Positions 12,729-46,282 of a stretch of DNA of 64,000 nt are shown here, piece after piece. The stretch spans positions 1 to 64,000 of the IMG/VR virus record IMGVR_UViG_3300020192_000008; one strand, written 5' to 3'. The number at the start of each line of letters is the position of its first letter. Positions within the stretch are counted from its first letter, which is position 1. The notes under the pieces were generated by a model. The model was given only the letters and a program-made list of their open reading frames with translations. It searched no databases and was not told the origin of the DNA. A program made the position numbers and the translations under genes. Origin of the DNA: a virus.

Positions 12729-12910
12729 GCCTGCTCCACTCCTAGCTCTTCATCTGTCTTGGGCCGGGTCTCATCCTCTTTCCGTACGAGCTCGATGAAG
12801 AACATCTCAGCAAGCTTCGTGACGGTAAGGTTTCTGCTCTGAGCAATCTCAGTCACCCTCTTCTTGAGGTTTCGATCTACGCGCAGATGGATGCGTTCGT
12901 CCTTGGACAT
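12725..12910 (-). CDS. ribbon-helix-helix (CopG/Arc-like) DNA-binding protein
   Basis: RIHLRVD beta-strand followed by two helices (LKKRVTEIAQSRNLTVTKLAEMFF); 61 aa. Confidence 0.7.
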   Translation of the reverse strand: MSKDERIHLRVDRNLKKRVTEIAQSRNLTVTKLAEMFFIELVRKEDETRPKTDEELGVEQA

Positions 12911-13164
12911 AACAGCTCGAGATACTTGAGAGCGTCGATCTGCTCCCTCAGACCTTTGATCTTCGGGAACCTCTCCTCGAGGTAGTCGACGACGATGTCG
13001 TGGGCCTGCTGAAGACCCTCCTCGTTGATTGGCAGACCCTCGATCTTGGCTGCGAGCTGACCCTCCATCTCCTTCTTCAAGATCGTATTGATACCGATCC
13101 AGGTGGGGAGATGAAGCCAGTTGAGCTCGAGCGTACCGATGTCAGTCGGGACTACGGCGTGCAC
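12910..13164 (-). CDS. hypothetical protein, TTA-terminated
   Basis: In-frame TTA overlaps the next ATG (TTATG). Confidence 0.65.
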
Positions 13165-13819
13165 GGATCTTCTCTTTCGCCTGGTTCACCAGGTCCTTGA
13201 GGATGGCCTTCCCCTCTTCATGCAGAGACTGAAGGAAGAGAGAGGCGCGGTGCTTCACGAAGCTGACCCTCTGCTCGATGGTCGGTTCAGGCTCTGGAGC
13301 AGGAGGGGGCGGAGGTGGCATGACCTTGCCCATGAGCGCATCAAGCAGTTCTTGCTCGAGGCTAGAGAGGCTGTCTACGTGGTTGTCTCGCATGTACCTA
13401 TCGAACTCCCTCTGCAGCTCTCGCCTCACTTCAGGGGCACGCCGGTTGGAGCGGATGCCCGAGAGAGGGAACTCGACAACCTCATGCATGGGGTCATCCA
13501 TGTGGTCATCGAGGGGGATCTTCCATCCCTCAGGAGCCGTCAGGCAGTAGAGCGGGACCTTGCGCTCGGGCTTGGTGAACCTCTTGGGGCCGAACTTGCG
13601 CTCCTTGAGGATGCGCAGAGACTCGAGCACCACGTTCTCGACCTCGTGCTGGTCATCGAAGTTCAGAAGCAGTTGCCTGGCAGCGGCATCGAACTTCGTG
13701 AACTTCTCTTCGGTGGTGAGCTCAGGGGGGAGGGTAGTACCAGCAGCGGCGTCTTCATGCTCGAGGCGTTCTTTGAACGGCCTTGGCTTGGCTGTCTTAG
13801 AAGTAGGGAGCCTACCCAT
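13142..13819 (-). CDS. hypothetical protein with Pro-rich linker
   Basis: Its ATG overlaps the TTA ending GroES. Confidence 0.75.
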   Translation of the reverse strand: MGRLPTSKTAKPRPFKERLEHEDAAAGTTLPPELTTEEKFTKFDAAARQLLLNFDDQHEVENVVLESLRILKERKFGPKRFTKPERKVPLYCLTAPEGWKIPLDDHMDDPMHEVVEFPLSGIRSNRRAPEVRRELQREFDRYMRDNHVDSLSSLEQELLDALMGKVMPPPPPPAPEPEPTIEQRVSFVKHRASLFLQSLHEEGKAILKDLVNQAKEKIRARRSPD

Positions 13820-14130
13820 AAGACGTCCACCCGCACATCACCATCGTAGGCAAAGAGAATGTCGGCCACGCGGATGGTGGCGACGTCCTTGCCGTGCTCA
13901 TCGCTGAGCTCACGGATGGCCTTGATGGTCTGCTTGCCGGGGCGGTGCTCCTCGTGCCAGCGGATGTAGGCCACCTTCTCGCCGACCTTGAGGTCCTTGA
14001 CCTTGGGGCCGACGGCGATGACAACGCCCTTGCGAACGTTCGTCTCGTTGATGACGAACTCGATGATGGAGCTCTTCTGATCGAACTGCTCCACCTCTAC
14101 GAGAATCCAGTCGTGCAGGGGGCGGATCAT
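13819..14130 (-). CDS. groES: co-chaperonin GroES (103 aa when TTA is read as stop)
   Basis: MIRPLHDWILVE, GVVIAVGP, LKVGEKV and DILF motifs; the domain ends right at TTATG. Confidence 0.85.
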
Positions 14131-14131
14131 C

Positions 14132-14458
14132 TCAGACCTCCACGTCGTCCTTCGAGGGGACGGCAGGGCCAGCAGCGCCGGCGCCCTTGCGAGCCTTGAG
14201 CTCGTTGACGATGGAGTCGCTCATCTCCTGGCGGAAGGGCTTGAGGGCGCTCGTCCACTGCTCAGCGTTGGGGGCGAGCCATGCCTTGCCGCCGCAGACC
14301 ACGATGACAGCGGTGTGCTTGCGACCCGACTCATCCCCCCACTCGACGAGCGCGTGCTCGACGGAGGTGATGTTCGTGATGGTGTTGACCGGCGCCTGCT
14401 CGGTCGACTGGTTCTCGGGGATGCGGACGCCTTGGTGACGGATGCCGTTGTTATCCAT
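14132..14458 (-). CDS. hypothetical protein
   Basis: GC3 bias, operonic position. Confidence 0.75.
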   Translation of the reverse strand: MDNNGIRHQGVRIPENQSTEQAPVNTITNITSVEHALVEWGDESGRKHTAVIVVCGGKAWLAPNAEQWTSALKPFRQEMSDSIVNELKARKGAGAAGPAVPSKDDVEV

Positions 14459-14834
14459 GGATGCTCTCTTTCTCTTTCAGGTACTTGTCGAACAGATGCC
14501 CGAGCTCATTGTGGGGAATCCAGATCCCAAAAGGGTTCCAAGGGCGGGGCAGGAAGTAGGACTGGGTGCCCTCAGCAAGCACGTCGTACGTGCTCACGCC
14601 TGCCCAAGAAGACTTCTCGTTGTGGTCAGCGATACGCATCGATGACCCGCACTTCGGGTTGGAGCAGAAGTAGCTGTCCTGCCGAACGGGACACCAACGA
14701 CCGCAACACACGCACTCAACCTCTTCGCCGTTCTTACGCACCCTGCGCTTGATGTAGACGTTGTCACCGAAGGACTCGGAGAGCGTGGCGTAGCCAGCGC
14801 GGAGGGTCGGGGGGTTAGGGGCTTCGTTCGTCAT
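14451..14834 (-). CDS. zinc-ribbon protein
   Basis: CVCC...CSNPKC motifs. Confidence 0.7.
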   Translation of the reverse strand: MTNEAPNPPTLRAGYATLSESFGDNVYIKRRVRKNGEEVECVCCGRWCPVRQDSYFCSNPKCGSSMRIADHNEKSSWAGVSTYDVLAEGTQSYFLPRPWNPFGIWIPHNELGHLFDKYLKEKESIHG

Positions 14835-15285
14835 GACTCTTCACGTAGGAGTGAGGCTTGGTGATGCGGTAAACGACAGCACCTTCGGGGGCCGAGGCCA
14901 CGTAAAGGCGGCTGCCATCTACGAACTCGAAGTACTCGATACACGATCGGGTGGTGCCGCCAAGGTTCTTGACGGCGATGTTCTTGAGCTTCTTCTTGAA
15001 CTGCTCTTGAACAGCGGCTGATGTGCAGTCGGTTTCTTCGGGGGTGCCGAAGCCGTGCTGCGCTGCAAGCATCTCGGTTGGAGACAGGTCTCGTACCCTG
15101 AACTTCGCCAGGTCCAGGACACTGAGGCTCTCCTCCACCAGACCGGCGCAGTTCTTCTCACACTCGATGCAGGTGTACTTGTCTGGCCAGAAGTCAGAGC
15201 CTTGGCCAATCAGGGAGGAGACCTCCATCTCCTCTCCCATCACTCGCACAGCCAGAAGGCAAGAGAAGCAGGGGACGAGGATCAT
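14815..15285 (-). CDS. zinc-binding protein
   Basis: CFSC...CIEC motifs. Confidence 0.7.
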   Translation of the reverse strand: MILVPCFSCLLAVRVMGEEMEVSSLIGQGSDFWPDKYTCIECEKNCAGLVEESLSVLDLAKFRVRDLSPTEMLAAQHGFGTPEETDCTSAAVQEQFKKKLKNIAVKNLGGTTRSCIEYFEFVDGSRLYVASAPEGAVVYRITKPHSYVKSHDERSP

Positions 15286-15860
15286 GCCTGACCTACGCCG
15301 TCTTCATCTGCGTCGCCACTGGTGCCGCCCACAACGCTGGCCGGGTCTACCCCGCCGTTGTTTGGCACGATGGGGTAGCCGTGCGAGTCCATGGGCACGT
15401 TGACCATGCGGGTGGGCTGCTTGCTGCGCTTCTTCTTCTTCTGCTTCTCAGCCTCACGGTAGGCGCGGGCCTGGGCATCAGCGCCCATGGCCTCGTGGTG
15501 AGGAACGGGCTCTTCAGCTTCATCCTCTTCCACACGTGGAGGGGCAGAGCCTGGGGGGCCTATCCAGCCGCTGGCCTCTTCGCCCACATCGCCACCGAAC
15601 TCGATGGCCATCGAGCCATCGTTCTGGGCCCGTGGCTCTTCACGCCGGCGCTGAGGCTGTTGCTGACGGGGCTCTTCCCTCTCCATGGGAGGAGGGGGAG
15701 GGGACCCGTTCAGGGCTGCAGCCACCGAGCGTGCAGAGTCTTCGGAGATGAGCGCCTTGACGATGCCCCCGTTGGGCAGCCTGAAGATCAAGAAGTTGGT
15801 GATGGACCCATCCTCGAGGGACAGGTCCTGGCTGATGGTCAGCAGGTCCGCTTTCATCAT
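15282..15860 (-). CDS. hypothetical protein, low-complexity
   Basis: ATGA coupling at both ends. Confidence 0.7.
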   Translation of the reverse strand: MMKADLLTISQDLSLEDGSITNFLIFRLPNGGIVKALISEDSARSVAAALNGSPPPPPMEREEPRQQQPQRRREEPRAQNDGSMAIEFGGDVGEEASGWIGPPGSAPPRVEEDEAEEPVPHHEAMGADAQARAYREAEKQKKKKRSKQPTRMVNVPMDSHGYPIVPNNGGVDPASVVGGTSGDADEDGVGQA

Positions 15861-16144
15861 CGCCTCAGGGAGGGGTCGAGAGGCGGGCGGGCACCACGTG
15901 CAGCGTCAGCTGTCGCGTTCTGCTTGGACGTAGCCAGAACAACCAGGTGCTTGGCCATCTTGTGGGCGCTGGTCAGCACCATGCAGTGAGCCCACTGCTG
16001 GCTCTCATAGTCCCGCCCATCAGGTACAGGGGTCTGAAACGCCATGCACTCAGCCGTACAAGGCCTCGAGCCATCGATGAAGCAGAACTTCTCCGACCCA
16101 ACGAGGCGTACATCCTCCGGTGTGAAAGGCTCTTCAGGAGGCAT
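15857..16144 (-). CDS. small Cys-containing protein
   Basis: C-x7-CxxxC...C pattern. Confidence 0.65.
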   Translation of the reverse strand: MPPEEPFTPEDVRLVGSEKFCFIDGSRPCTAECMAFQTPVPDGRDYESQQWAHCMVLTSAHKMAKHLVVLATSKQNATADAARGARPPLDPSLRR

Positions 16145-16508
16145 TCTTCCTCTTCTCTTCTTCGATCTTCACGCGCTCTACAAAGAGAGCCTGAAGCGTG
16201 GCTGCAGCTGAGACCCGCAGGTAGCGCTCGAGCTCCTTGGTATGATCCAAGAACCCGAAGTCCTTGAGCATCTTGCCCAGAGGCAGGGCCATATGTTGCG
16301 CCATGCAGAGCAGCAGCTGCCGTCCGAACACCCGCACGATCTCCTCCGGAGACCCCGCGTTGTTCTCGAACTGATGAGCTGTCATCTGCTCCTTCTGGCC
16401 CTTCCAATCGCACGACTGACAGCTAGCTGCCCCACCAGCAAGACTCGAGTAGGTAACCCGAGGGCTCATGCAGTCTGGACAAAAGTATGCAACGTCGACT
16501 GCCATCAC
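16134..16508 (-). CDS. zinc-ribbon protein
   Basis: CPDC...CQSC motifs. Confidence 0.7.
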   Translation of the reverse strand: MMAVDVAYFCPDCMSPRVTYSSLAGGAASCQSCDWKGQKEQMTAHQFENNAGSPEEIVRVFGRQLLLCMAQHMALPLGKMLKDFGFLDHTKELERYLRVSAAATLQALFVERVKIEEEKRKNAS

Positions 16509-16945
16509 TTCTTCCTGTTGTTGAAAGCTAGCCGACTGAAGAGCTCTTCTTGGCTCTTCCTGTCAGCCGGAGTCATAGGCTTACTCGGCTGTACCTTCTT
16601 GAGACGACTACGCACAGTCTGTGGCCCCATGCTGCGAACAGACATGGGACCCCTCTGGGTTTCCCTCTCGAGCATGTCCTTGATGTCCTTGTCCTGCCTC
16701 TTCTTGGAGGTCTCGATCCAAGGAAACATAAGCTTGCGGTAGTCCTCGAACTTCTTCACACCCGTGTCCTTGTCAATCGCTATCTGTGCCATCGCCAAGT
16801 CACGCATGTATTCCCGTTCCTCGATCTTGAGCACGTACAACATCATCAGAGACTCCCGAAGCGACCCCTTACGAGGCGGCTCCTTTAGGGTCGAGAACAG
16901 GATCGTTGTTCTCGCCCATCCCTCGGGAGTCTCTAGCCATTTCCC
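16505..16945 (-). CDS. -1 frameshift extension of the upstream tail-assembly-chaperone-like protein (gpGT-like)
   Basis: Frame is open from the slippery site G GGA AAT (16945-16939) through KWLETPEGWAR... into the 16505-16846 ORF. Confidence 0.65.
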   Translation of the reverse strand, partial: GKWLETPEGWARTTILFSTLKEPPRKGSLRESLMMLYVLKIEEREYMRDLAMAQIAIDKDTGVKKFEDYRKLMFPWIETSKKRQDKDIKDMLERETQRGPMSVRSMGPQTVRSRLKKVQPSKPMTPADRKSQEELFSRLAFNNRKK

Positions 16946-18138
16946 AGGCGTTTGGCCTGGACAAGCTTCCGCACCCTGATGTCGAACCAGTAGAAGTGCA
17001 CAGCCAGCGAGGCAACGAGGTGGAAGCCGAGCTTCACCGTGAGGTTGAACTTCTTCCAGAACATACCGTCGTCGAAGTTGCCCTCCTTGTCCAGGTGGTC
17101 TGGCAGGATGTTCCGGTTGAGACGCGACAGCCCGAGGGCCACACCCATGACCGAGTACTTGTCGAGGAAGTACCGGTTGGGAGCATCCGTGAAGTTCTTC
17201 CTCTCTAGTACCAAAAGGCGCTTGAGAGCAAGATCTTCTTCCTGGTTGTACGACTGGAACACCGGCTCGTACTTGCCCGGGATGATTGGCACAGTCTGAC
17301 GGACGCGCCCCGTCATGATGTACTCGTCCAGGTCGAGCGGATCGAGACGTTCCTCCACCAACTGACGCTGCTCGTCGTTGTTGAGGATGTCCTTCATCGT
17401 CATCTCGGCGAAGGTGTTCATGTCGAAGTCGTCGAGATTGCGCATGGCTTTCTCGAACTCCTTCCGCTCTTCGCTGGTGACAGGCTTCTCGGTACCGCCG
17501 GCGATCTTCGCAGCAGCTCCACCGATAGACTCACCCGCCTCCTCAACCGCCTTCTTGTCATCCTGCGACTGGGCAACCTGCTCAGCCTGGTCCTGCAGGT
17601 CCTTGAGAACCTTCAGTCCCTCCTGCGTCTTCTGGCTCAGACCAGGCTTACCGCTTTGCAGCTGCTGTGGAGCCATGAACTTCCCGTTGCGGACGACCCC
17701 GTACTTCATCGCCAGGTGCGGCTGGCTCGACGCGTTCATAGAACCCATGCCGCCCTGATACGAGGGGTCATCTTTGGCCATCTCCGGCAGCAGGTCACCT
17801 GCCATCAGTGCGCTCAGCGGCGACTGAGACGGCGCTGCCTGGTAGCCAGGCGCCAGCGGCTGAGGCTGCGTCGGAGGGGGCGGACCAAAGATACCTCGCT
17901 GCGACATCGGTGAACTCCTCTCGGCCTCTTGTCTCATCGCACGGGCCTGATCGGCCATCGTCATCCCATCACGGTGTGTCCCATCCAGAGGCGGCGTCGG
18001 GGGCGGAGGCCCGCCTGCCACCGGCTGGCTGTACCTGCGCTGCTGGAACCGCTCGGCATACCGAGCAGCTTGCGGGTTGAGGGCAGCTACTTGAGGGTCC
18101 ACATGGGGCCCCTTGTCGTCTGGTCCGCGTCGAGTCAC
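16933..18138 (-). CDS. putative tail assembly chaperone (gpG-like) with long disordered N-terminus
   Basis: GTG 18138 with SD GGAGG and -10 TACACT; ends GGA AAT GGC TAG at a slippery heptamer. Confidence 0.55.
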   Translation of the reverse strand: MTRRGPDDKGPHVDPQVAALNPQAARYAERFQQRRYSQPVAGGPPPPTPPLDGTHRDGMTMADQARAMRQEAERSSPMSQRGIFGPPPPTQPQPLAPGYQAAPSQSPLSALMAGDLLPEMAKDDPSYQGGMGSMNASSQPHLAMKYGVVRNGKFMAPQQLQSGKPGLSQKTQEGLKVLKDLQDQAEQVAQSQDDKKAVEEAGESIGGAAAKIAGGTEKPVTSEERKEFEKAMRNLDDFDMNTFAEMTMKDILNNDEQRQLVEERLDPLDLDEYIMTGRVRQTVPIIPGKYEPVFQSYNQEEDLALKRLLVLERKNFTDAPNRYFLDKYSVMGVALGLSRLNRNILPDHLDKEGNFDDGMFWKKFNLTVKLGFHLVASLAVHFYWFDIRVRKLVQAKRLGNG

Positions 18139-18204
18139 TGATCCTCCGAGAGTGTACGCACGTTGGGCGTACAAGTAGTGGGTATCACGAGAAGAACGAG
18201 GGGG

Positions 18205-18579
18205 TCAACTTACCCCAGCTTCGATCAGAACAATACTGCTGAGTAGGTTCTGGAAGTCTGAGGCGAGCTGGCCGGGCTGCTGGCGCACGAAGACAACCTT
18301 CGCCAACCGCAGCGGCGACCGGTAAGGAACAAGGGGGGTCGAGTAAACCAGGTGGTAAAAAGAAGGGTCTCTGGTGCCCTTCTCCTCCACGAAGACCTGT
18401 CCCAAGATCTCTCGCAGGGATGCCCCCGCAAGAAGCCTTAGGCCAGACTTGTGGCTGAGATGAAGCTGGTGAAACTCGATGCGGTCGATGACCACATCGG
18501 ATGCCTCCCTCTCTTCCGTCTCGAACCTGGATGCTGAAGCCACAACCTCCGAAGAGGAGAACGAAGGGTACAGGTTCAT
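18205..18579 (-). CDS. hypothetical protein
   Basis: ATGA overlap at 18576-18579. Confidence 0.55.
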   Translation of the reverse strand: MNLYPSFSSSEVVASASRFETEEREASDVVIDRIEFHQLHLSHKSGLRLLAGASLREILGQVFVEEKGTRDPSFYHLVYSTPLVPYRSPLRLAKVVFVRQQPGQLASDFQNLLSSIVLIEAGVS

Positions 18580-18824
18580 GTCGAGGGGATCTTGTCGAAG
18601 CCGACGGGCTTCTTCACCACGTCGGCAGCAGGGGCCTTGGTGATCTCCAGCGAGTGGCACTTGCACAGGTGACACTTGCCGAACTCAGGCACGGAGGGGT
18701 CGTAAGGGACGCGCGTCCCAGCCTTCCACCCCGTCGATGTCGAGACGCGAAGCTTGGCCGTACCAGGGCAGCCATCCGTCGTGCACTTCGCTTCGTAGTA
18801 CCCAAGCAAGGGGTCGCGCATCAT
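18576..18824 (-). CDS. zinc-ribbon protein
   Basis: CTTDGC...CHLC motifs. Confidence 0.7.
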   Translation of the reverse strand: MMRDPLLGYYEAKCTTDGCPGTAKLRVSTSTGWKAGTRVPYDPSVPEFGKCHLCKCHSLEITKAPAADVVKKPVGFDKIPST

Positions 18825-19105
18825 GACTTGTTGTCCTGCATCTGCATGATGGCCTGGAGCACCTGGCTCTTGGTCGGCTCGATGTCTTGACCCTCGGCAA
18901 AGCTCAGCTTGCCCTGCACAAGGGCAATGCGGACCGTCTCCTTGAGCATGAAGAGCATGCGCTTGAGCTCTGCCTCCCCACGGTTATACGTTCTCTCAGC
19001 TAGAGAAAAACAGAGGGGGCAAACGAACACGCCGGCGAATGCCTTCGCTTCCGAAGACTTCACCGGCGTCCTGCAGTTCATACAGTCGAGTAGGTTTTCT
19101 TCCAT
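18821..19105 (-). CDS. zinc-finger protein
   Basis: CMNC...CPLC motifs. Confidence 0.7.
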   Translation of the reverse strand: MEENLLDCMNCRTPVKSSEAKAFAGVFVCPLCFSLAERTYNRGEAELKRMLFMLKETVRIALVQGKLSFAEGQDIEPTKSQVLQAIMQMQDNKS

Positions 19106-19305
19106 CGTTCGAGACCGTCAATGTAGACGGTCTTGATTCGACGGGTAGGAATAATCAGGCAGGCTTCTGCCTCATTCACCAGGGTCACGTTCTCCTGGGT
19201 GGGGTCCCAGGAGCAGACCAGGCGCTCGGCAATGGCAGCATCTACGTCCGGGAACGTGTACGTCTTGCCGAGCTCGGTGAGGAGGCGTACTTCTACGAGT
19301 TTCAC
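19078..19305 (-). CDS. hypothetical protein
   Basis: GTG 19305 lies 7 nt after extended -10 TGTTACCTT (19313-19321). Confidence 0.6.
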   Translation of the reverse strand: MKLVEVRLLTELGKTYTFPDVDAAIAERLVCSWDPTQENVTLVNEAEACLIIPTRRIKTVYIDGLERWKKTYSTV

Positions 19306-19330
19306 CCGCAGGAAGGTAACACTACCTCTC

Positions 19331-21463: not shown

Positions 21464-21916
21464 GTGTCAGAGAAATCGATAATAGACCCTGAGAAGGCGA
21501 TCTGGGCGGAGCTCATCATCAAGGGGCAGATGGCTGCCGAAAGGGTACGGGAGATCTGGGCCAAGGAGCGGACCGTGGGGAACATGGTCATGTCCTGGGT
21601 GAGGGAGGTCATCTACGACCGCCAAGGCAAGCCCATCAACGACACGGTGGTTCTCGAGCTGCCGACAGGGGCCGTCTCGAAGAACATCCTTGCCCGCTTC
21701 GTGGCCAAGACCAAGGCGTTCGCCTTCCTCGTGGTGGAGCGGCGAGACAAGGAGGTCAGGCTCACCCTCGAGTCAGAGCACGGTTGCGTCATCTGGGTCA
21801 TGCCCATCGAACGCCACGGTGACATCTGGGTTCTCGGCAACGAGAAGGCAAAAAGAAACCCCACTGCCGGGGGGGAGGCAGTGGGGCTTCTCTGGAGACC
21901 GTCGCAGGCAAACTAA
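21464..21916 (+). CDS. hypothetical protein
   Basis: GC3 bias; start uncertain; its TAA is complementary to the TTA of the convergent gene. Confidence 0.65.
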   Translation: MSEKSIIDPEKAIWAELIIKGQMAAERVREIWAKERTVGNMVMSWVREVIYDRQGKPINDTVVLELPTGAVSKNILARFVAKTKAFAFLVVERRDKEVRLTLESEHGCVIWVMPIERHGDIWVLGNEKAKRNPTAGGEAVGLLWRPSQAN

Positions 21917-25572: not shown

Positions 25573-26280
25573 TAAGCCGTCGGTCTCGGTCGAGGCGTCG
25601 TACTCGTAGTAGAGCGCATAGTCCTTGGCACCATCGAGGGCTGACGCCGGCGAGTAGCTGCCGTTGGGCGGGCTGGTCGCCGCACTGACGAAGGTACCCG
25701 TGGTGACGACCGCGCCGACGGCGATCTCCTTGATGGGCGCGGAAAGACCGGCGCGGGGCTTGAGCTTCTTCCCCAGACCGAGGACTGAACCATAGCCGAT
25801 GGCCACGGTAGCAGCAGTACCCTCAGCTGCCGCGAAGACAACCGAAGTCACGGTCTTGAAGGCCTTCACGCCCTCCGAGATGGTAGCCGTCTGCGCGACC
25901 GTGATGGTCTCGGTCTGGGCATTGCCATTGACATCCGTGCCCGTAACGAGCGCACTCGCCGGGGCGTCAGCCGGGGTCACACCAGCTGTGGTGAGCGTGA
26001 CATTGCGAGGGAAGGCAGCGAGAGCCGTCACGCCGCCGGCGAGGAACGAGCTCACCGTCAGAGGGGCAACTGTGGTCGCAGCAGCAACCTCGAGGCCAGC
26101 AGCTGCAGCGGCACCCGGGCCCGTGAACTCCTCGACCACGACGGCCGCAAGAGGCGTGAGCGACTTGAGGATGTCGGCGCGCAGGTTGTGAATGGCACCG
26201 GACAGACCCGGGCCGGGTTTGATGAGGTGGACGAACTTCTCGACCATCGTGCTGAACAGACCTGAACCAATAGATGACAT
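25573..26280 (-). CDS. putative virion structural/decoration protein (235 aa), TTA-terminated
   Basis: Thr/Ala/Val-rich (PRNVTLT, VTGTDVNGNAQTETI); own ATG at 26280; in-frame TTA four codons before TAG. Confidence 0.7.
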
Positions 26281-33689: not shown

Positions 33690-34585
33690 TTGTCTGGGTC
33701 CGTGTACGTGGTGGGGTACAGGGAGAAGATACCGGGGATCTCTTCTCGCTCGAACGTCTCGAGGTTCATCGGGTTGGTGAAGTTCCTAGAGGGGCTAAGC
33801 GCCAGGTCCTTCAGCTCTTCCTGCAGGTTGATCGGGAAGGCGTACTCCACGTCTGAGGTGGGGATCTCATGGAGCTGTATCTCGTAGTGAACTGGGCTGC
33901 GGCCATGCTCAGTCTGGTTCACCGAGACCACACGCCACCGCTTGTTCTCCGCCTCGATGACCACATCCCTCGGCTTGAGCGGGCCGAAGTAAGCAACGCG
34001 GGCGTTGTTGTTCTGCTGCTGGGTGGGACCCGTGGCCGAGTTCTGTTCTCCCAGCATATCGTTGGTGTCGATCTGCATCCAGAGCTCGATGGGGCTCAGG
34101 TACCCACGGATGAAGCCCGTGTCGAAGCAGGTACGACAGCCTTGGCAGGTGCGCTTGGCCAGCGTCTTGTTCCACCGGGGGCAGCGCTGACCGAACGTAC
34201 GAACAGGTAGCAGCCACACCCTGCGCCCTGCAAACTCTCGCATCAGCAGCTGGAAGTGACGGCGGAGTTCGAGGGCCATGAGGTCAGCGTCTGGCTGAAC
34301 ATCAACGGGACCGAACTCCTCCGTCTCCTCCGTACTCTTCTTCGTGACGACGATCTTGTACTGGAGCTGGCGAGACGTGTGGAACGAGGGCTTCTGCCGG
34401 TCGAGGAAGAGGTACCTGTCCTCGAACGGAATGCTGATCGCCTCCCAAGGCCCGGCCATCGACTCCGACCTGAGGACTTGCAGGGTGTAGTCGAGGACAT
34501 CTTCAGAAGTGTCTTCGATCTCCCACGAGACCTCGTTGTAGTCGACGTCGAGTGACCGGACCTTGAGTTGGGCGATCTTGAGCAT
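33686..34585 (-). CDS. putative neck/head-closure protein with N-terminal FN3-like domain
   Basis: EVSW...YTLQVLRS...YKIVV; CxxC..GFIRGY; LKPRDVVIE motifs. Confidence 0.55.
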   Translation of the reverse strand: MLKIAQLKVRSLDVDYNEVSWEIEDTSEDVLDYTLQVLRSESMAGPWEAISIPFEDRYLFLDRQKPSFHTSRQLQYKIVVTKKSTEETEEFGPVDVQPDADLMALELRRHFQLLMREFAGRRVWLLPVRTFGQRCPRWNKTLAKRTCQGCRTCFDTGFIRGYLSPIELWMQIDTNDMLGEQNSATGPTQQQNNNARVAYFGPLKPRDVVIEAENKRWRVVSVNQTEHGRSPVHYEIQLHEIPTSDVEYAFPINLQEELKDLALSPSRNFTNPMNLETFEREEIPGIFSLYPTTYTDPDK

Positions 34586-36177
34586 CAGGCGCTCGCAGCC
34601 TCAGGCTGAGCGTGAATGCCCGTGCGCTTCACGTCCATGAGATGAGACGACAGGTCCTTGTTACTGAAGCCGGCTGCACGACCCGTGTCCTTGATGCGCT
34701 TGTTCACGCCTGCCTTGAGAGCCTCAGCCACGCTCAAGCCAGGGGCCTTCTTCGCAATCCGGCGGGCGTCATGCGCGATGTGCCCGCCCAGGCCGATGGC
34801 ACCACCAGCTGCACCACCAAGCAGGCCGTGACCGATCGCCTTGCCCACGCTGCCATCAGGACCCGACATGCCTTCAGCTGCCCCGCCTGCAGCACCAACA
34901 GCCGCCCCGATGAGGGCCGGCTTGTTCTTCAGCAGACCCTTACCCAAACCACCAGCGACTCCTCGCACAGTGGCCATGTCGAGGGCCATCTTCGCCATGT
35001 CGCTGCGGGCCATCATCCGGCCCATCTGGTCAGCCGATGCGAACTTCTCACGGCTCACCATGTTCAGCGCCATGCTGGCCTTGGCCATCTGCGGAACGCC
35101 GCCCATCATTCCGCCCATCGCCCCGGTCATCGCCTGACGAGCTCGGCCCCACAGGCCCTTTGCTGCGCCGGCGACTGCCTGACCCGCACCCTGCAGCATG
35201 CCTTGCTGAGGAGCTGGGCGTGCAGGTGCTGCGGCCGGTGCAGGAGCACCGCCACCACCGAAGAAGCTTGCTGCTGCGGGGTGAGGTGCCGGTGCCGGAC
35301 CCCCGCCGCCACCGAAGAAGCTCGCAGCCGCAGGGTGGCTAGCCGCCGGAGAAGACGGGGCGTTATGAAGAGCATCAGGACTGCGAGGCTGAGGAGCAGC
35401 CCCCAACCGACCCATGGTGCTGTCCATCTGCTTGGTGTAGTGGCTGTCTATCTTCGCTTGAAACTGCTGAGGGGAGACGTTGAAGACCGACTTGGCGTGG
35501 TCGAGCGCACTGTTGGCGGGTTGGAAGGGAGCTGTCCGTGATGCCGGAGCTGCCGCGGCTGCAGCAGGAGCTGCTGCCGGAGCTGCCTTTGCAACGCCCC
35601 TACCCGTAAAGCCTCCGCGACCCCCCATGCCGCCTACGCGGCTACCGAAGCTGGCTCCACCGAAACCGAAGGAGACCTTGTCCATCCCTGCAAGGATGTG
35701 GGCGATCTTCGGGTTGGCAGACATGCCTGGGTCACCGGCCGGAGGGGGCGGGGGCGGAGCACCCTGGTCTGGCGGCGGAGGCCCGCCGGGATCTTCACCG
35801 CCTTCACCACCACCCGACTCCATCTCCATGAGCTTGAGATCGAGCATCTTCTTCTGGAGACGAAGGCTGTCCATCGTCTTCCAGTGAGACTGAGTGTCTT
35901 CCATCTGCCTCTTCTGCAGGTCAGCCACGTCCGCCTCGAGCTCCTGACGCTCGAGCGCAATGGCCTCCTCGAAGAGAGGCGTGTCCTTGAACTTCTCGAT
36001 CCACTCGTGGCTGCCACTACCAGAGTCGCAGTTGAGCATCGACGAGAGCTTCAGCTGCCCTGAAGCGATCTTCTCGAGGGTGCCCACTGGGAGCCGCTTG
36101 ATGAGCGAGACGATCTGCTCGTCCTGCCCGGCCTGCATGCTTTGGTCGTATGCGACCTTCAGGAACTCGTTCAGCAT
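34585..36177 (-). CDS. putative virion internal protein (low complexity)
   Basis: Multiple K-x-A motifs, glycine zippers, HPAAASFFGGGG duplication. Confidence 0.65.
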   Translation of the reverse strand: MLNEFLKVAYDQSMQAGQDEQIVSLIKRLPVGTLEKIASGQLKLSSMLNCDSGSGSHEWIEKFKDTPLFEEAIALERQELEADVADLQKRQMEDTQSHWKTMDSLRLQKKMLDLKLMEMESGGGEGGEDPGGPPPPDQGAPPPPPPAGDPGMSANPKIAHILAGMDKVSFGFGGASFGSRVGGMGGRGGFTGRGVAKAAPAAAPAAAAAAPASRTAPFQPANSALDHAKSVFNVSPQQFQAKIDSHYTKQMDSTMGRLGAAPQPRSPDALHNAPSSPAASHPAAASFFGGGGGPAPAPHPAAASFFGGGGAPAPAAAPARPAPQQGMLQGAGQAVAGAAKGLWGRARQAMTGAMGGMMGGVPQMAKASMALNMVSREKFASADQMGRMMARSDMAKMALDMATVRGVAGGLGKGLLKNKPALIGAAVGAAGGAAEGMSGPDGSVGKAIGHGLLGGAAGGAIGLGGHIAHDARRIAKKAPGLSVAEALKAGVNKRIKDTGRAAGFSNKDLSSHLMDVKRTGIHAQPEAASA

Positions 36178-39412: not shown

Positions 39413-39453
39413 AAAGCCAAAGGGCGCCGGCACCACCCGGCACCGGCGCCCTT
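39413..39453 (-). terminator. hairpin after the major capsid gene
   Basis: AAGGGCGCCGG...CCGGCGCCCTT stem. Confidence 0.7.
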
Positions 39454-39481
39454 CGTCCTGGCTAGGACCAGCCTACCAGAC

Positions 39482-40603
39482 TCAGTAGGTCGTGATCTGC
39501 GGGAACCGCAGGCCCTGCTCGACCTTGTTGTTCACGGCGCCGATCGCATCCTCGGAGACCGGGATGAAGTTCTGCAGCAGCGAGTTGCTGTCCGTCACGG
39601 GGTTCGCATCGCCCGAGTACAGCTCGAGCTTGCGGACGGCCGCGATGTTGATCACGCCCATGCCGATGTCTTCCCAGGCCTGGAACGTGATGACGTTCGC
39701 GATCTTGTCGATGTAGAACTTCGTGTTGTTCAACACGTAGAACTTCCCGAAGAACTCAGGCTTGGTGAAGCAGTAGATGTTGCCCGGACGGAGGATGTCC
39801 GTCTTGATCGTGCGGATGTACGCACGGCCGAGCAGCGTGTTGTACTTGTAGCCATCGACCGTGGTCTCCGACTGCAGACGATCGCCGAAGTCCTCGACCG
39901 TCCACTGCAGGAGATCGTCCCAGTCGGTCTCCGTCATCAGCAGACGCTCAGCCCGCAGGCGGTTGCCGTCGAGCATCTTGAACAGGTTCACGATGTCGGG
40001 GCGCTGCACGGGGCGAACCACCGCGTTGTTGGCACCAGCCGTACGCGCGAGCTCACCCTTGCGGATCGAGAACTCGGCAACGGTGCCAGCGTTCGTGCTG
40101 GTGTAGTTGAGGGCAGTGGGGGTACCACCGTTGGCCTCGGTCTGAAGCGCTTGGCAAGCCGCCTCGATGTGGATCGTGAACTCGCGGTCCTCGATCTCCT
40201 GGATGTCCTTCACCGAGTTCTCCTCGATGATCTTCGTGATCGGCATCTCGTAGGCGAGCAGCTCCTGCTCGGTCTTCTGGAAGACCTCCGAGGCGATCGT
40301 GAAGAAGGCAATCTCTGCCTTCGGACCACGGATGAACCGTGCCGTGGGCTGGCCACGGAAGCTGATGCTCATGGCACGCGAGCGGGGCTCGACGTCCACG
40401 ATCTTCACCAGGGTGTCATGGTTGACGGACCGCTGACAGTCCGTGCGGGTGACCTGCTCCGGCGGCAGAACCTTGCGGGCGTAGCTGACTTCGCGCAGAC
40501 GGTCACGGATGTACGAACCGCCGTACTCCGCCACCTTCTCGCGACCTTCAGCCGACCCGAGCTTCGCCGTGAAGAGCTCATTCAGAACTCGTGCGGGGAC
40601 CAT
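39482..40603 (-). CDS. major capsid protein
   Basis: 373 aa, strong codon bias, follows protease/scaffold/decoration genes and precedes a terminator; REVSYARKVL and IQEIEDREF motifs. Confidence 0.8.
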   Translation of the reverse strand: MVPARVLNELFTAKLGSAEGREKVAEYGGSYIRDRLREVSYARKVLPPEQVTRTDCQRSVNHDTLVKIVDVEPRSRAMSISFRGQPTARFIRGPKAEIAFFTIASEVFQKTEQELLAYEMPITKIIEENSVKDIQEIEDREFTIHIEAACQALQTEANGGTPTALNYTSTNAGTVAEFSIRKGELARTAGANNAVVRPVQRPDIVNLFKMLDGNRLRAERLLMTETDWDDLLQWTVEDFGDRLQSETTVDGYKYNTLLGRAYIRTIKTDILRPGNIYCFTKPEFFGKFYVLNNTKFYIDKIANVITFQAWEDIGMGVINIAAVRKLELYSGDANPVTDSNSLLQNFIPVSEDAIGAVNNKVEQGLRFPQITTY

Positions 40604-40636
40604 ATTAGTTCTCCTTGTCCTTCTTCTTCTGGCAGC

Positions 40637-41194
40637 TCAGGTCGTGCCGTTACGGACGGCCCAACCCTGCATGAAACGCAGCTGACCGCTCGAGGGCAGC
40701 TTGGTGACGTATCCGACGACCGGGCCGTTGCTCGCGTAGCTCGAGCCGACGAGGCCCGAGAACTTGCGCGTGCCGCCCTCGGCCAGAGCGAGCGTGATGG
40801 TGCACACGCGCAGCGGCTGGAACAGCGTGGTGATGGCAGCGCCACCAGCCGCGCTCGACGCATCGTAGATGCGGGTGTTCCACTCGTACTGACCGAGCAT
40901 CAGCACGGGAACCTTCTTCTCGGCCGACGCCTGGATGTCGTACCGACCACGCTCAGCCCACAGGGGCATCGCGATGACAGTGGCCAGGGCGTCAGCAACG
41001 GTGACGTCGGTGGCGCGCTTGGCCTTGCCCTGCGAAGTACCCGGAGTCGAGTCGAGTGTGAGCCATTCGCCGTCGACAAGGCAAAGGGCGTTCATGGGGT
41101 TGACCAGCGTCGCATCAGCGAGCATCCAGTCACGACGGTGAGCCAGGTTGACGTCAGTCACAGGCTCGAAGTTGACCCTCTGGACAGTGGACAT
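40637..41194 (-). CDS. putative head decoration/cement protein
   Basis: Immediately upstream of the capsid gene; PVVGYVTK; SD AGGAG. Confidence 0.6.
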   Translation of the reverse strand: MSTVQRVNFEPVTDVNLAHRRDWMLADATLVNPMNALCLVDGEWLTLDSTPGTSQGKAKRATDVTVADALATVIAMPLWAERGRYDIQASAEKKVPVLMLGQYEWNTRIYDASSAAGGAAITTLFQPLRVCTITLALAEGGTRKFSGLVGSSYASNGPVVGYVTKLPSSGQLRFMQGWAVRNGTT

Positions 41195-41232
41195 AGTATC
41201 TCTCCTGTTGAACTAGGCTTGGCTTCGAGCCG

Positions 41233-41604
41233 TAAGCCGATGGTTCCGTGAAGGAACCGAATGAAGTCGGACGCCCCTTCGGGCGCCTGCGTGTCGTTGT
41301 TACCGCCGACCAGATGGCCGATCTTCTCGCCCATGTTCGGGCCCACGAGATCAACCGCCGCAGCGATCTTCTCGAGCTTGCCCTCCTCGGCCGCCTTCTC
41401 CATCTGGGCGACTAGGCTCTCGTAGGGGACATCCGACTGGATGCCCTTCTCGTGCATCGCCGAAGCGACCTTCTCGGCCTCTTCGTGACGCATGCGGGCC
41501 TGGGCTTCCTTCTTCCAGAAGTCCCTTTCCCCGGCGAGTTGGGTGATCGCGGAAGCGCTCTTGGTGAGGAGGTCCTGGACCTGCGCGCTGCTCAGCTTGT
41601 TCAT
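41233..41604 (-). CDS. putative scaffold-related protein (123 aa), TTA-terminated
   Basis: ATG 41604 after GGGGAG; in-frame TTA at 41235-41233, upstream of the next gene's SD. Confidence 0.65.
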
Positions 41605-41606
41605 GT

Positions 41607-43064
41607 TCAGCACTCCCCGCCGTCGAAGGCGTTCTTCTCGCGCCTGGGCGAATCTTTGCGCGTCTCTTTGTCCGCCTCGGAGGCGATCTTCTGGAGAAGC
41701 ATCTGGGCTGCCGCTTGCGCCGTCTGGTCAGAGGCGAGCTTGTGGCCAGCCTCTCCCGAGTGGGCGAACGCCTGCTGCAGCGTGGTGTCGGTGGCCTGCG
41801 TGAGAGCAGGCTCGTTGAAGTACTTGCCCAGCTCCGCTTTGCGGAGGCTGTAAGCCGAGTTGCGCTTGAGGTTGATGGCCGCCTCGTTCGAGGAGATCAT
41901 CGAGGTCTGGCTGCCGTAGCCGCCGGCGACAGGCTGACCGCCAGGCTCACCCGAGGCAGACGACTGGGGAGGCGTTGCCGCACCGCCGCCAGAGATCTGA
42001 GCCGGGTTGATGGCGTCTTCTGCCTGCTTGCGGAGACCGATGAGAGCATTGGCGAGAGACGCGCTCGCTGCCTTCTCCTCGGGCATCTCTTCATGGCGAG
42101 CGTTGAACGCCGTGTGGCCACCGAGAGCGCCAAGTGCGGTGTTGAGACCAACGCCGCCCTTGAGTGCGCCCATCGCAGCTTCACGAAGGTTGCCAGCACC
42201 CTGCATGCCCCGAAGAGCACCGATTGCCGAACCACCGAGAGCACCACGAGCAGCTGCGCCATCAGCCGAGTCAGCTCCGTAGCCGGCAAGAGCACCAGCC
42301 CCGCCGTATGCGAGACCCTTGCCGAGACCAGCAGCGGCACCACCGAGACCACCGAGTGCAGCTCCACCAGCTCCGCCCATGGCACCACGGCCAAGCATCG
42401 AAGCCTCGCTGCCCATCAGTCTCTCACCAAGAGCGCTGCCTGCTCCGCCCATGGCACCGAGGGCGCCACCTGCGAGAGCTCCACCACCAGCCCCGAGAGC
42501 GGCAGTCGTACCAGCTGAACGCATCACCGCGTTACGGAGACGCTCCGAGTCTTCCATCGCCTCTGGGTCTTCTTCCGCAACCTTCGACAGGGCGCGAGCA
42601 ACCTTCAGCTTCGCCGATGCGGTCTTGCCGCCACCGGAGAGAGCTGTCTGCTGCTGACCAGAACCGCCGGGGGGCGAGTCCATGGTGTTCTGCATCTGGT
42701 TGGCAGGGCCCGTGTTGGACGCCTGCATCCCCGGGTTCATCGGGGGCTGAGCGTGACCCTTGCCCTGGCCACCGGGGCCGGGGGGAGACTCACCACTCGT
42801 CGACTGGGAGACAGCGAGCGCGTTCGGGCCGGTACCAGGACCGATGTCCGAAGCCTGCTTGATCTGACCAGCCGCCCAGGCACATGCCTCCGCCAGCTTC
42901 TCAGCGTAGTCGGTGGGGATGCTCTGGTTGTCCTGCGTGTTGATGGGGGCAGCGGAAGCAGTCTTCTCGTGCCGAGCTGCCTCTGAGCGAACCATCCGCT
43001 CAGTAGCCCCTGCCATCGCTTCCTTGACGAGGTCTTGGAGCAGACCGCGATTGTGGGTTGGCAT
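41607..43064 (-). CDS. putative virion internal/scaffold protein
   Basis: Many K-x-A motifs, glycine zippers. Confidence 0.65.
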   Translation of the reverse strand: MPTHNRGLLQDLVKEAMAGATERMVRSEAARHEKTASAAPINTQDNQSIPTDYAEKLAEACAWAAGQIKQASDIGPGTGPNALAVSQSTSGESPPGPGGQGKGHAQPPMNPGMQASNTGPANQMQNTMDSPPGGSGQQQTALSGGGKTASAKLKVARALSKVAEEDPEAMEDSERLRNAVMRSAGTTAALGAGGGALAGGALGAMGGAGSALGERLMGSEASMLGRGAMGGAGGAALGGLGGAAAGLGKGLAYGGAGALAGYGADSADGAAARGALGGSAIGALRGMQGAGNLREAAMGALKGGVGLNTALGALGGHTAFNARHEEMPEEKAASASLANALIGLRKQAEDAINPAQISGGGAATPPQSSASGEPGGQPVAGGYGSQTSMISSNEAAINLKRNSAYSLRKAELGKYFNEPALTQATDTTLQQAFAHSGEAGHKLASDQTAQAAAQMLLQKIASEADKETRKDSPRREKNAFDGGEC

Positions 43065-43148
43065 TATTGATTCCTCTGAAGAAGTAGAGCGACGGTGGGG
43101 GGAGGTGGAGGAAGGGGCCGGGCTTTCACCCGGCCCCCTCCTGGTCGA

Positions 43149-44003
43149 TCACTCGTTCCAGGTGACCGGGTAGCCGGCAGCCTCGAGCAGCTCGATCGAG
43201 CGGACATCAACCGCCGACTCGAGGTCGGGAGCCGAAGCCACCTTCACGCTGTCGCTCTCCGAGACGCCGAGGGTCAGCACCGAGAAGACACGCTGAGCGG
43301 CCTCGTCGGCATCCCAACCAGCCGACGCGGCCTTCTCGACCGCCAGCTCACTGGCCAGATCGTCGAGAGCCGAGCCCTCTTTGACCTTGTCGTGAACCTT
43401 CTTCGCGCCGTAGGCCGCACCGCCAGCAGCTGCTGCACCAGCGGCGTGAATAGCTGCACCAACCGCCTTGGACTTGCCCTCACTCGCTTTCCAGCCGGCC
43501 TTGTGGGACGTGCGGTCGGCTGCGTTCATCGCACGGCGACCAGTGGCCTCCATGTGCGTGGAGACCCCCTCGCTGACCCTCTTGCCGATGTGGCTGAGAG
43601 GCGCCTTGAGGCGATCGATGAACTTCGATCCGTCTGCTGGGGCCTTGCCGGCGATCTTGGTGAGCTCCTGGACGTAGGCATGAGCCATCACGCGACCGAG
43701 GTAGTCGGCTTCGGCAACCTTCGCCATGGCCTCCTTCTTCTCCTCGTGCTCTTCCTTCGCCTTCTCGACCTTCTCCTCTTTCTCCTCTTTCTCGCCCTCG
43801 TCCTCGGCGAGCTTGTTCATGTTCTCGACCCACTGGCCGTAGATGCCACGAACCTGGGCATCGGGCATCGAGTTGAGGTCGAGGCCATTGGCCTCTGCCG
43901 TCTTGACGAAGAGGTCGACGGAAGCGTCCTTCTCGAAGGCTTCCTGCTGGGCGCTGGAGTTGCCGGTTCCGTAGTGGGCGGCGAGGAGTTCGTTCATGCT
44001 CAT
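43149..44003 (-). CDS. putative scaffolding protein
   Basis: Glu/Lys-rich helical protein with many K-x-A motifs, downstream of the protease. Confidence 0.6.
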   Translation of the reverse strand: MSMNELLAAHYGTGNSSAQQEAFEKDASVDLFVKTAEANGLDLNSMPDAQVRGIYGQWVENMNKLAEDEGEKEEKEEKVEKAKEEHEEKKEAMAKVAEADYLGRVMAHAYVQELTKIAGKAPADGSKFIDRLKAPLSHIGKRVSEGVSTHMEATGRRAMNAADRTSHKAGWKASEGKSKAVGAAIHAAGAAAAGGAAYGAKKVHDKVKEGSALDDLASELAVEKAASAGWDADEAAQRVFSVLTLGVSESDSVKVASAPDLESAVDVRSIELLEAAGYPVTWNE

Positions 44004-44093
44004 GGTGGTGTCCCTTGGTTCTTGATCAGTTGAGGATTACGCGCTGCGTGTTCCTCGAGGGGGAACCCCTCTCCACGCCGGCTTTCGCCCGAG

Positions 44094-45743
44094 TTACAGA
44101 AGGCCCCCGTAGATGTCAGCGCCCAACTCGTCCCAGAAAGCGTCCCGCAGATAGTGGACCGTGAGGGGAGTGAAGAGCTGATCAACTGGTGCCGACGCCA
44201 GCTTACTGAACTCACTACCCCTTGGGGCAGATGCGTTCAGAAGTCCTTGTGCGCCGCTCACCAGATCCATGAGAGTTGTTCGGTACCCGTTGTAGGCAGC
44301 TCCTATCTTACGCAGCACTTCTGAGGGATGGGAAGAAGAGGCCCTCTTCTCACCCCCGTCGCTCTTCTTCATCACAAGTACACGATGCTCAATCGCAGGC
44401 GCGAGAGCAGAGCGTGATTCCATGAGAGGGAGAAGAAGTCTTGCAAGTGAAGGAAGGAAGGAAGCGTGGCCGAGAGACATACTCTCAGTATCTTTCGATC
44501 TGGGGAAGACGATGTTCCGACGATCAAAGTCGTCAGCCATGTCTCTCCGTCCGATCTGAATCAAGACGATACGCTGAAACTCCCTGGGACGAAGAACGAT
44601 GCCCAAACCACCAGAAGTAGACAGGGAGCTGGGCAGGTCATGTTTCCCGAGTGCATCAAGCACATCATCAGGCAAATCTTCTTCTTCTCTCGACAGAGTG
44701 GCCACCGCCTTGCCAGCGAACTGGCTCGGCACAATGTCCTTGATGATCTCACTCTTCTTGAGCTTCGCGTCCTTGTATTGGAACGCTTCCTTGAAGATTG
44801 ACTCGTTGAGAGAAGCCGTCTTTTCCCCAACGGTCATCTCGTCGTAGCCGAGCTTCTCCGCCTCATAGGCAGAAGAGCCGAACGAATAGACGCGCCCCTC
44901 AGACGCGATCTTCATCATCGTCTTGGCTGTCTTGTCAGCCCCGATGAAGACGAAAGAGATGTCGAAGAACTTCGGGAAGTCGTTGTAGACGTACACCTTC
45001 CGGCCATCGGCCAGAATCTTGTTCATCTGATTGCGAGCGTGCTCGCAATAGTCCTTCCGAGTGATCGACACGCCCCGGATAGGGGTCTTCTTATGGATGG
45101 CGAGGATGGCCTGGCCCGGAGACGCGTGCTTCTTCGGGTCGAAGGTGGCAGCCGCCTCGTGGTACCGCTTCCAATCGAGGCAGATGGAGCACGTATCGAA
45201 GGGCACCTTGCAGCCCATCGAGACATCCGGAAACATGCCCTGGCTGAGCTTGTCCCAGACCTGCGTGCCCCCGTACTCCTGGCACTTGAGCTTATCGACC
45301 CGAGTAACGAGCTCGACGCGCTTGAGCCTCGGGTGCCAGACAGCCAGCTCCACCTCACCGAAGGCGCGGCCTGCGTCCTTGTTGCGATGGTGGGCGTAGG
45401 GGTGGGCTGAATAGAAGGTCGGGTAGCCGTACGCCCAATCCTTCGCCTTGATCTTGTCGAGCAAAGGGTTGCCCGTCCAATCATCAGGGCGATGGATCAG
45501 GGCAGCTTCTGGGAAGTGATCGCCGTTGACATTGGAGCCGAAGAACTCTCCGGCCCCCATGGCATTGACGAGGTTGTACGCTGCATCATTCCGGGGCCTG
45601 AGCGACTCGATATACTTGACGACGTCAGGAAGAAGTGTGGCTGATGCGGTCTTCTCGAAGTACGCATCAGACGCTTTGTTGAAGAGCGGGATGACCGTTG
45701 GGCCAGTCTCGCTCTCACCCCAGTATGTGCAGAGCTTGTACAT
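44094..45743 (-). CDS. prohead (capsid maturation) protease
   Basis: NVNGDHF, YAHH, DVSMGC and FFDISFV motifs typical of assemblin/HK97-type head proteases; position upstream of the capsid gene. Confidence 0.75.
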   Translation of the reverse strand: MYKLCTYWGESETGPTVIPLFNKASDAYFEKTASATLLPDVVKYIESLRPRNDAAYNLVNAMGAGEFFGSNVNGDHFPEAALIHRPDDWTGNPLLDKIKAKDWAYGYPTFYSAHPYAHHRNKDAGRAFGEVELAVWHPRLKRVELVTRVDKLKCQEYGGTQVWDKLSQGMFPDVSMGCKVPFDTCSICLDWKRYHEAAATFDPKKHASPGQAILAIHKKTPIRGVSITRKDYCEHARNQMNKILADGRKVYVYNDFPKFFDISFVFIGADKTAKTMMKIASEGRVYSFGSSAYEAEKLGYDEMTVGEKTASLNESIFKEAFQYKDAKLKKSEIIKDIVPSQFAGKAVATLSREEEDLPDDVLDALGKHDLPSSLSTSGGLGIVLRPREFQRIVLIQIGRRDMADDFDRRNIVFPRSKDTESMSLGHASFLPSLARLLLPLMESRSALAPAIEHRVLVMKKSDGGEKRASSSHPSEVLRKIGAAYNGYRTTLMDLVSGAQGLLNASAPRGSEFSKLASAPVDQLFTPLTVHYLRDAFWDELGADIYGGLL

Positions 45744-46282
45744 AAGGGGCCCTGACCGCCCTTGTTGTTGCGGCGCTGGTAGGGCTTGGCGACGACCTTG
45801 GGCTTGAGCGACTCGGCGAACGAGTTACCTGCGTGCTCACCACCCCTACGCCACGAATCAGCCATGGGGGACTTGAACTTGTCGGAGGCCGACAGGCTCT
45901 CGGTGAGGATGCCACCGGCTGACATGGGGTTGTCGGCCATGCGGCGCAGATAGGTCCCGGCGACGATCGGGTCCTTGGCGAAGTTCGGATTCATGTTCCG
46001 AAGCGACGAGTACATCTGGTTGAACATCTTCGGGTCGCGCTCGTGATGCTCATGCAGGTCCGGGTTCAGTTCCAAGATCTGCTTGAAGTCGTGCGACTTG
46101 GTGGCCGCATCGTAGATCTTGCCAGCGGCCATGCCGGCGCCGGCGAAGGCAACTCCGGCAGCAGCCATCCCAAGACCCTGCGTCATCGCATGGCCGAAGC
46201 CCTTGGCAGCTTCACCACCGAAGGCGACCTTCTCCTGGGGCTCGCCGTACTGGGCGTAGAAGTCATCGAGGGGGTTAGACAT
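45743..46282 (-). CDS. hypothetical virion protein (179 aa), TTA-terminated
   Basis: EKVAF motif; in-frame TTA overlaps the protease ATG (TTATG). Confidence 0.7.

Follow-up and report, generated by a model that had tools for sequence, protein, structure and literature searches.

UUA has been reassigned from leucine to stop in several organelles. In labyrinthulean mitochondria and dinoflagellate plastids, the use of UUA as a stop codon goes together with a substitution at Ser204 of release factor RF2 (PMC12574857). In organelles of this kind the cognate tRNA is missing, and either RF2 has the Ser204 substitution or mtRF1a is altered; pedinophyte-derived dinoflagellate plastids use UUA and UCA as stops, and the mitochondria of Marsupiomonadales and Pseudoscourfieldia use UUR (PMC12574857). 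The corresponding NCBI table 23 (Thraustochytrium/Labyrinthulea mitochondria) equals table 11 plus TTA as a stop. Our literature searches returned no report of TTA/UUA as a stop in phages or bacteria, the precedents being organellar only (mitochondria and plastids). To our knowledge, all accepted code variants of bacteria and phages run from stop to sense or swap one amino acid for another. In the stop-recoded phages (crAss-like and Lak), for example, TAG or TGA is read as an amino acid. In the phiHau3/Streptomyces system, UUA is read as leucine with the bldA tRNA, or hopping joins the two halves of a gene (PMC10732093). Here we analyzed bases 1-64000 (the window) of the linear 107,272-nucleotide (nt) IMG/VR record IMGVR_UViG_3300020192_000008 (G000), which derives from an uncultured phage and in which three minus-strand gene junctions have the form TTATG. 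UUA probably ends translation in this phage as a fourth stop beside UGA, UAA and UAG, and would end about 18 of its 114 genes. If UUA terminates, the TTATG sites amount to ordinary stop/start overlaps like TGATG and TAATG.

The initial annotation had placed TTATG pentamers on the minus strand at 12912-12908, 13821-13817 and 45745-45741, and all three were confirmed, the TTA sharing its A with the next ATG. At each junction the TTA is in frame with a well-scoring upstream open reading frame (ORF), as codon 85 of the ORF beginning at 13164, codon 104 of that beginning at 14130 and codon 180 of that beginning at 46282, and the ATGs open ORFs of 61, 225 and 549 codons. Read with table 11, the upstream ORFs go on for another 10, 51 and 81 codons and overlap the next gene by 34, 157 and 247 nt. 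Coding potential was scored with a codon log-odds table trained on the central parts of long ORFs, with TTA and the stops set to zero. The score of the upstream frame falls from +23.8 before the TTA to -41.3 after it at junction 1 (TTA 12912-12910, ATG 12910-12908), where the downstream frame scores +8.6. The corresponding values are +23.7 and -22.1 at junction 2 (TTA 13821-13819, ATG 13819-13817), and +17.7 and -34.5 at junction 3 (TTA 45745-45743, ATG 45743-45741).

The genes on either side of the junctions differ in how well they can be identified. At junction 1, a gene of 84 amino acids (aa) plus TTA with a GTG start (12910-13164, minus), whose table-11 ORF runs to a TAG at 12877, is followed by a 61-aa gene (12725-12910, minus). 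Residues 1-44 of the 61-aa protein align to residues 1-44 of the phrog_2737 profile (E 2.7e-5), and the Arc-like phrog_582 also matches (E 1.2e-3). Its earlier description as a ribbon-helix-helix protein thus comes down to a weak Arc-like PHROG match. At junction 2, the upstream gene (13819-14130, minus; 103 aa plus TTA) encodes a GroES/Cpn10-like co-chaperonin (Cpn10, phrog_3188), and its table-11 ORF of 155 aa ends at 13663. The downstream 225-aa ORF (13142-13819, minus) returned no homologs in our searches; its start at 13819 is plausible, the next in-frame start seen by eye being a GTG near 13633. At junction 3, a conserved 179-aa gene of the virion module (45743-46282, minus; 261 aa under table 11, ending at 45497) precedes a conserved 549-aa gene (44094-45743, minus). 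The 549-aa protein had been labeled a prohead protease, a putative assignment for which we found no Pfam or PHROG match. Homologs anchor the N-termini of the 61-aa and 549-aa proteins at junctions 1 and 3, M1 of the latter aligning to M1 of its homologs. The homolog of the 549-aa protein in one relative (L002) carries an insert of ~390 residues.

If the upstream proteins really end at TTA, their orthologs should not extend past the junction. For the GroES-like protein, 57 homologs were retrieved from 1.84 billion representatives; none of them has an alignment that passes residue 104 of the 155-residue read-through ORF, and many, including the best, end at the TTA position. In 55 of 56 related loci, the gene upstream of junction 3 has a standard stop at -4 to +39 nt relative to the point where the 549-aa ortholog begins. 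The expectation that relatives would carry TGATG or TAATG at this place was borne out, with 9 TGATG, 2 TAATG and 5 ATGA junctions, and the layout was also read by eye in L002, L007 and L008. The sole exception among the 56 is L018 (IMGVR_UViG_3300032282_006516), whose upstream ORF appears to run 244 nt past the start and contains no in-frame TTA; a frameshift or a wrongly chosen alignment segment may be the cause, or the overlap may be genuine.

The same pattern is seen at TTA gene ends outside the three junctions. A 725-aa virion-module protein ends in a tandem in-frame TTA-GCC-TTA (52445-52453, minus), which adjoins the GTG at 52443 of a 336-aa gene. All 119 of its homologs (own entry excluded, 5.8 billion proteins searched) end 0-9 residues from the TTA, and none of them covers the 168-residue tail of the read-through ORF. 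A standard stop is located -1 to +14 residues from the TTA in each of 83 related DNA loci, and the GTG start of the 336-aa gene is orthologous in relatives. The large terminase gene (TerL; 48211-51021, minus) contains a LAGLIDADG intein-like insert at about residues 390-730, an insert it shares with L006, and ends in TTA at 48208-48210; in L006 and L002, TAG follows directly after the same ...QG. Among 60 related TerL loci, the stop falls at exactly the same residue in 53 and within 4 residues in 59. In L002 the TerL insert sits at a different site; the insert-bearing regions of this relative, which concern TerL and the 549-aa homolog, are L002:1869-5021 and L002:7770-10622.

Tandem TTAs are found twice, as TTA-GCC-TTA in the window (TTAs at 52453/52447) and as TTA-TTA in a second phage described below (G001; L058:717-722, minus), and they resemble known tandem stop codons.

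Further TTAs lie where gene boundaries would be expected. The TTA that ends a 123-aa gene (41233-41235, minus) is followed by a 38-nt spacer with AGGAGA and then by the ATG at 41194, and the L002 ortholog has TGA and a 33-nt spacer. The only mid-ORF TTA of the contig (26317-26319, minus) splits a 648-codon table-11 ORF at a gene boundary, with a Shine-Dalgarno-like GAGGG and a same-frame ATG at 26280 following. Homologs of the downstream part start just past this TTA, their residue 2 aligning to residue 412, after M410. A 235-aa gene ends in TTA (25573-25575, minus) 3 codons ahead of a TAG, followed by a terminator-like hairpin, and a 207-aa gene ends in TTA (21914-21916, minus) followed by a GC-rich hairpin and a terminator-like T-run. 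At 80555, outside the window, TTA again precedes a GC-rich hairpin with a T-run. As is usual after stops, the TTAs are followed by a spacer with a Shine-Dalgarno sequence and an ATG, by a terminator-like hairpin, or by the next start codon 0-7 nt away.

Across the contig, TTA behaves like a stop codon. It does not occur in 9,096 central codons of long ORFs. We defined a strong coding signal as 40 codons of clear in-frame score ahead of the TTA; after each of the 16 in-frame TTAs with such a signal ahead of it, the in-frame score collapses (mean -19.8). The mean score after TGA is -19.2 and after TAG -24.8, while the sense codons CTA, ATA and TTG are followed by means of +3.6, +7.8 and +8.8. 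The signal is lost after 19-39% of CTG, TTT, TTG, CTA, AAA, GTA and ATA codons and after 70% of AGA codons (n=20). A gene model with TTA as a stop yields 114 genes, of which 66 end in TGA, 18 in TTA, 15 in TAA and 15 in TAG. It does away with the same-strand overlaps (109, 121, 157 and 247 nt) that arise under the standard model. Under table 11, the tails past TTA reach 251 codons. Judged from these sequences, TTA is where the proteins end, and the starts of the next genes coincide with it or lie next to it.

Several minus-strand TTA ends (7990-7992, 21914-21916 and 48208-48210, and also 6643-6645) are at the same time the TAA of plus-strand ORFs. The plus-strand ORFs 7321-7992, 21464-21916 and 47806-48210 have positive coding scores, and a Pfam search of these plus-strand ORFs gave no match. 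Convergent genes may thus share one triplet as a stop on both strands. The terminator-like hairpin at 21916 falls inside the plus-strand ORF.

The TTATG geometry is found next to conventional overlaps on the same contig. The four minus-strand TGATG junctions of the initial annotation, with shared bases at 11629, 34585, 46282 and 56492, are all real and served as a comparison set (11627-11631, 34583-34587, 46280-46284 and 56490-56494). The third lies one gene upstream of junction 3, and the fourth follows the 2126-aa RNA polymerase gene. The gene model of the contig has TGATG at six junctions and ATGA at ten. Both strands of the 107-kb contig hold 17 TTATG pentamers, of which 4 are clean gene junctions; a fifth, at 79396, is a TTA-TGA with an ATG start. 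This fifth site is the end of the primase gene (L003:15396-15404, equal to G000 79396-79404, plus), where the ATG overlaps the TTA (TTATGA) and a second in-frame ATG lies 6 nt on, and the site works under both codes. TG follows 6 of 19 TTA gene ends, while the frequency of this dinucleotide in the genome is 0.067 (binomial P about 0.001). The ORF opened at one of the six (94956) has just 33 codons, and 5 of 19 is the safer count, with P estimated below 0.01. The identical geometry, the orthologous TGATG/TAATG/ATGA junctions and the TG excess suggest that TTATG couples the two genes by reinitiation. The earlier claim of productive termination-reinitiation rather than a stall is likewise an inference from geometry.

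To ask whether the trait is shared, we compared ~80 related loci. Of about 910 TTA codons in their aligned regions, 452 pair with leucine of the window proteins, and TTA scores there as a sense codon does, so the relatives read TTA as leucine, the change is lineage-specific and the ancestral reading of the family is standard. One distant relative, G001 (locus L058), departs from this pattern and has the signature of the window phage in stronger form. It is a complete 177,132-nt genome with terminal repeats and a GC content of 0.46, and 22,951 central codons of its long ORFs include 4 TTA versus 423 TTG, 473 CTA and 758 ATA. This depletion does not come from GC content, because an equal-GC relative has 54 TTA in 4,851 codons. 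In score, the 37 in-frame TTAs that follow a coding signal in G001 resemble the stop codons of that genome; 11 of the 37 have the form TTATG. A naive expectation from TTG x NNA/NNG predicts too many TTAs for most relatives, and its P-values were used for G001 only. G001 encodes ten tRNAs, nine for A/U-rich codons and one amber-reading; they include tRNA-Leu(CAA) and tRNA-Leu(UAG) and no tRNA-Leu(UAA). The amber-reading tRNA has the anticodon CUA (tRNA-Pyl according to ARAGORN; L096:1500-1572, G001:135414-135485, minus). Despite this tRNA, conserved genes of G001 are intact under table 11, several of them ending in TAG. In a FastTree phylogeny of the 725-aa protein, with local supports only, the window phage and G001 are not sisters, which fits a host-imposed trait or two gains.

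Among 79 related loci, G001 was the only clear further TTA-stop relative. L015 (IMGVR_UViG_3300037225_001101; 56% GC) lacks TTA in about 4,000 body codons, compared with 3-17 in peers of similar GC, and may be a third TTA-avoiding member; no TTA gene ends were found within the 18 kb examined. Single collapsing TTAs in L011, L012, L018, L062 and L076 fall in mixed or shadow ORFs and were set aside.

We then weighed other explanations of these data. Under the standard code, TTA would be a very rare leucine codon, the long tails would be real and the genes would overlap by 34-500 nt. The ORFs are open under table 11, the public gene calls are recorded in this way, and GC-rich relatives also have few TTA codons or none. 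However, no homolog of the four tested proteins carries the tail, the tails have non-coding codon statistics, and every in-frame TTA lies at an orthologous gene end. In addition, the relative with 46% GC, G001, has 4 TTA versus several hundred expected, and we consider a plain standard-code explanation very improbable. A sequencing, assembly or editing error that made real stops into TTA is hardly credible: the genes contain many out-of-frame TTAs (121 cases) and TAA still serves as a stop, so the effect is frame-specific and not a base-calling problem. Furthermore, both JGI/IMG and Logan hold entries for the read-through proteins (155, 95 and 893 aa), which also occur on contigs of 22,378 and 15,540 nt, and G001 shows the same signature in a separate, complete genome. 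Another possibility is that UUA triggers bypassing or frameshifting that fuses the flanking ORFs, as proposed for the split terminase of phiHau3, and UUA-mediated bypassing in a phage terminase is experimentally supported (PMC10732093). Eight TTAs are followed by G, giving TAG in the +1 frame, but 8 of 19 is not an enrichment over a G frequency estimated at ~30%, and the TTATG and TTAC contexts give no +1 stop. We also tried a simple +1 slip onto TAG at TTAG, suggested by TerL, where the relatives have GGC-TAG and the window GGG-TTA-G, and rejected it as a general mechanism on account of the TTATG/TTAC sites without a nearby +1 stop. Moreover, at each tested site relatives carry two separate genes divided by a standard stop and often by a spacer, and several TTAs are followed by terminator-like hairpins or by a Shine-Dalgarno sequence and ATG; recoding at UUA is therefore a highly unlikely account.

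A less distant alternative holds that UUA is unassigned, or hungry. In this case the host would have no usable tRNA-Leu(UAA), or the phage would destroy it, and ribosomes would stall at UUA and then be rescued (tmRNA, ArfA/RF2 or ArfB) or undergo slow near-cognate release. The complete genome G001 lacks tRNA-Leu(UAA) despite its ten tRNAs, neither phage has a release-factor gene, and a hungry codon equally explains the avoidance of TTA in gene bodies. On the other hand, tmRNA tags its product for degradation, and ArfB and ArfA need a truncated mRNA. Tagging or truncation is ill-suited to the essential, abundant terminase, helicase and virion proteins that end at TTA, and the TTATG overlaps need intact mRNA for the next gene. 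TTA is also the sole terminator for 16% of the genes, with no selection for a nearby back-up stop. We thus regard an unassigned UUA as unlikely.

Some observations also weigh against UUA as a fourth stop. At 60% GC, the absence of TTA from gene bodies is weak evidence when taken alone, and several standard-code relatives of similar GC likewise have 0 TTA in about 5,000 codons. Junction 1, whose support comes from coding statistics and the downstream N-terminus, has a tail of only 10 codons, and no homologs of the upstream 84-aa protein were found. A search for RF-1, PCRF and Pth domains found none in G000 or G001, so nothing on the phage side explains release. Finally, a weak Shine-Dalgarno sequence was considered as a mark of coupling, and overlap genes and other genes did not differ in this respect. 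The Shine-Dalgarno energies ahead of the TTATG starts (-2.2 to -7.5 kcal/mol) resemble those of other genes; the alike strengths leave coupling unproven, and independent initiation is compatible with the data.

We then propose a model for the fourth stop. The ribosome would finish the upstream protein at UUA, and the next gene would start on the AUG that shares the A of UUA. The release factor at work would most likely be an RF2 of the bacterial host whose specificity has widened. Loss of tRNA-Leu(UAA) in the host would accompany the widened RF2, as proposed for the organelles that read UUA as a stop. In its full form, to which we lean, UUA would be a true, release-factor-decoded fourth stop in a bacterium-phage system and the first case outside organelles of a sense codon turned into a stop. 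At least two lineages of one ~180-kb phage family would have gained it separately because their hosts lost tRNA-Leu(UAA) and carry a UUA-reading release factor. TTATG would then show reinitiation as it occurs after UGA or UAA. The TTATG junctions bear on the mechanism, as they place UUA relative to the restart codon like a normal stop.

The contig has a GC content of 0.60 and a CheckV completeness of 58%, its genes lie mostly on the minus strand, and no tRNA genes were found on this 58% complete sequence. A major head protein and the GroES-like protein are recognizable in the window, and a DnaB-like helicase and a DnaG-like primase are encoded outside it. A fused RNA polymerase of 2126 aa (56492-62872, minus) shows domain matches to Rpb2 (beta) and Rpb1 (beta') in a single chain. 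This multisubunit-type enzyme sits within the virion gene block and is family-wide, with ORFs of 2166-2674 aa in relatives. A tblastn search of the 725-aa protein against 50,697 phage records gave no match, so no host can be inferred from cultured relatives. The only hint at hosts comes from metagenome-assembled genome bins that hold contigs of relatives, which are assigned to Myxococcota and Chloroflexota.

The code itself is a known organellar table; what is new is to find it in large phages and, by implication, in bacteria. Sense-to-stop changes escape the code-inference programs Codetta and KACI (preprint 10.64898/2026.04.02.715157). If UUA is a stop here, standard gene callers mis-annotate about one in six genes of such phages as fused or overlapping, as the public records of this contig do. 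A bacterial lineage with a four-stop code would then probably exist, as yet undescribed, and its release factor and tRNA set would directly test the organelle-derived RF2 Ser204 hypothesis. UUA could also form a host-range barrier, because a standard-code host would yield tailed, probably defective phage proteins.

Among known systems, the organellar UUA-stop codes resemble this phage in several respects. The same codon passes from leucine to stop on a bacterial-type translation system, it is confined to the 3' ends of genes, at positions occupied by standard stops in the orthologs, read-through gives apparent fused genes, and the three standard stops are kept. These organelles have no tRNA(UAA); of the two phages, the complete G001 encodes none, and the 58%-complete G000 showed no tRNA genes of any kind. 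In contrast to the organelles, the present case concerns ~180-kb double-stranded DNA phages with a presumably free-living bacterial host, and two non-sister phage lineages whose relatives read TTA as leucine. The overlaps themselves match the stop/start coupling of ATGA, TGATG and TAATG operons, in that the last base of the terminator is the first base of the ATG. Here, however, termination falls to TTA, which the standard code reads as sense, and the coupling is putative. As with the stop-recoded crAss-like and Lak phages, the standard table mis-calls genes, and G001 also has an amber-reading tRNA, but the direction here is from sense to stop. Table 11 leaves the conserved genes of 2126, 1229 and 1153 aa without interruption, and no in-frame TAG or TGA recoding (codes 4 and 15) was seen. 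Like the Streptomyces bldA/phiHau3 system, the window phage is GC-rich and singles out UUA at ORF ends, including the terminase region. Unlike in that system, relatives have the flanking ORFs as independent genes, and the codon here coincides with the true end of the protein.

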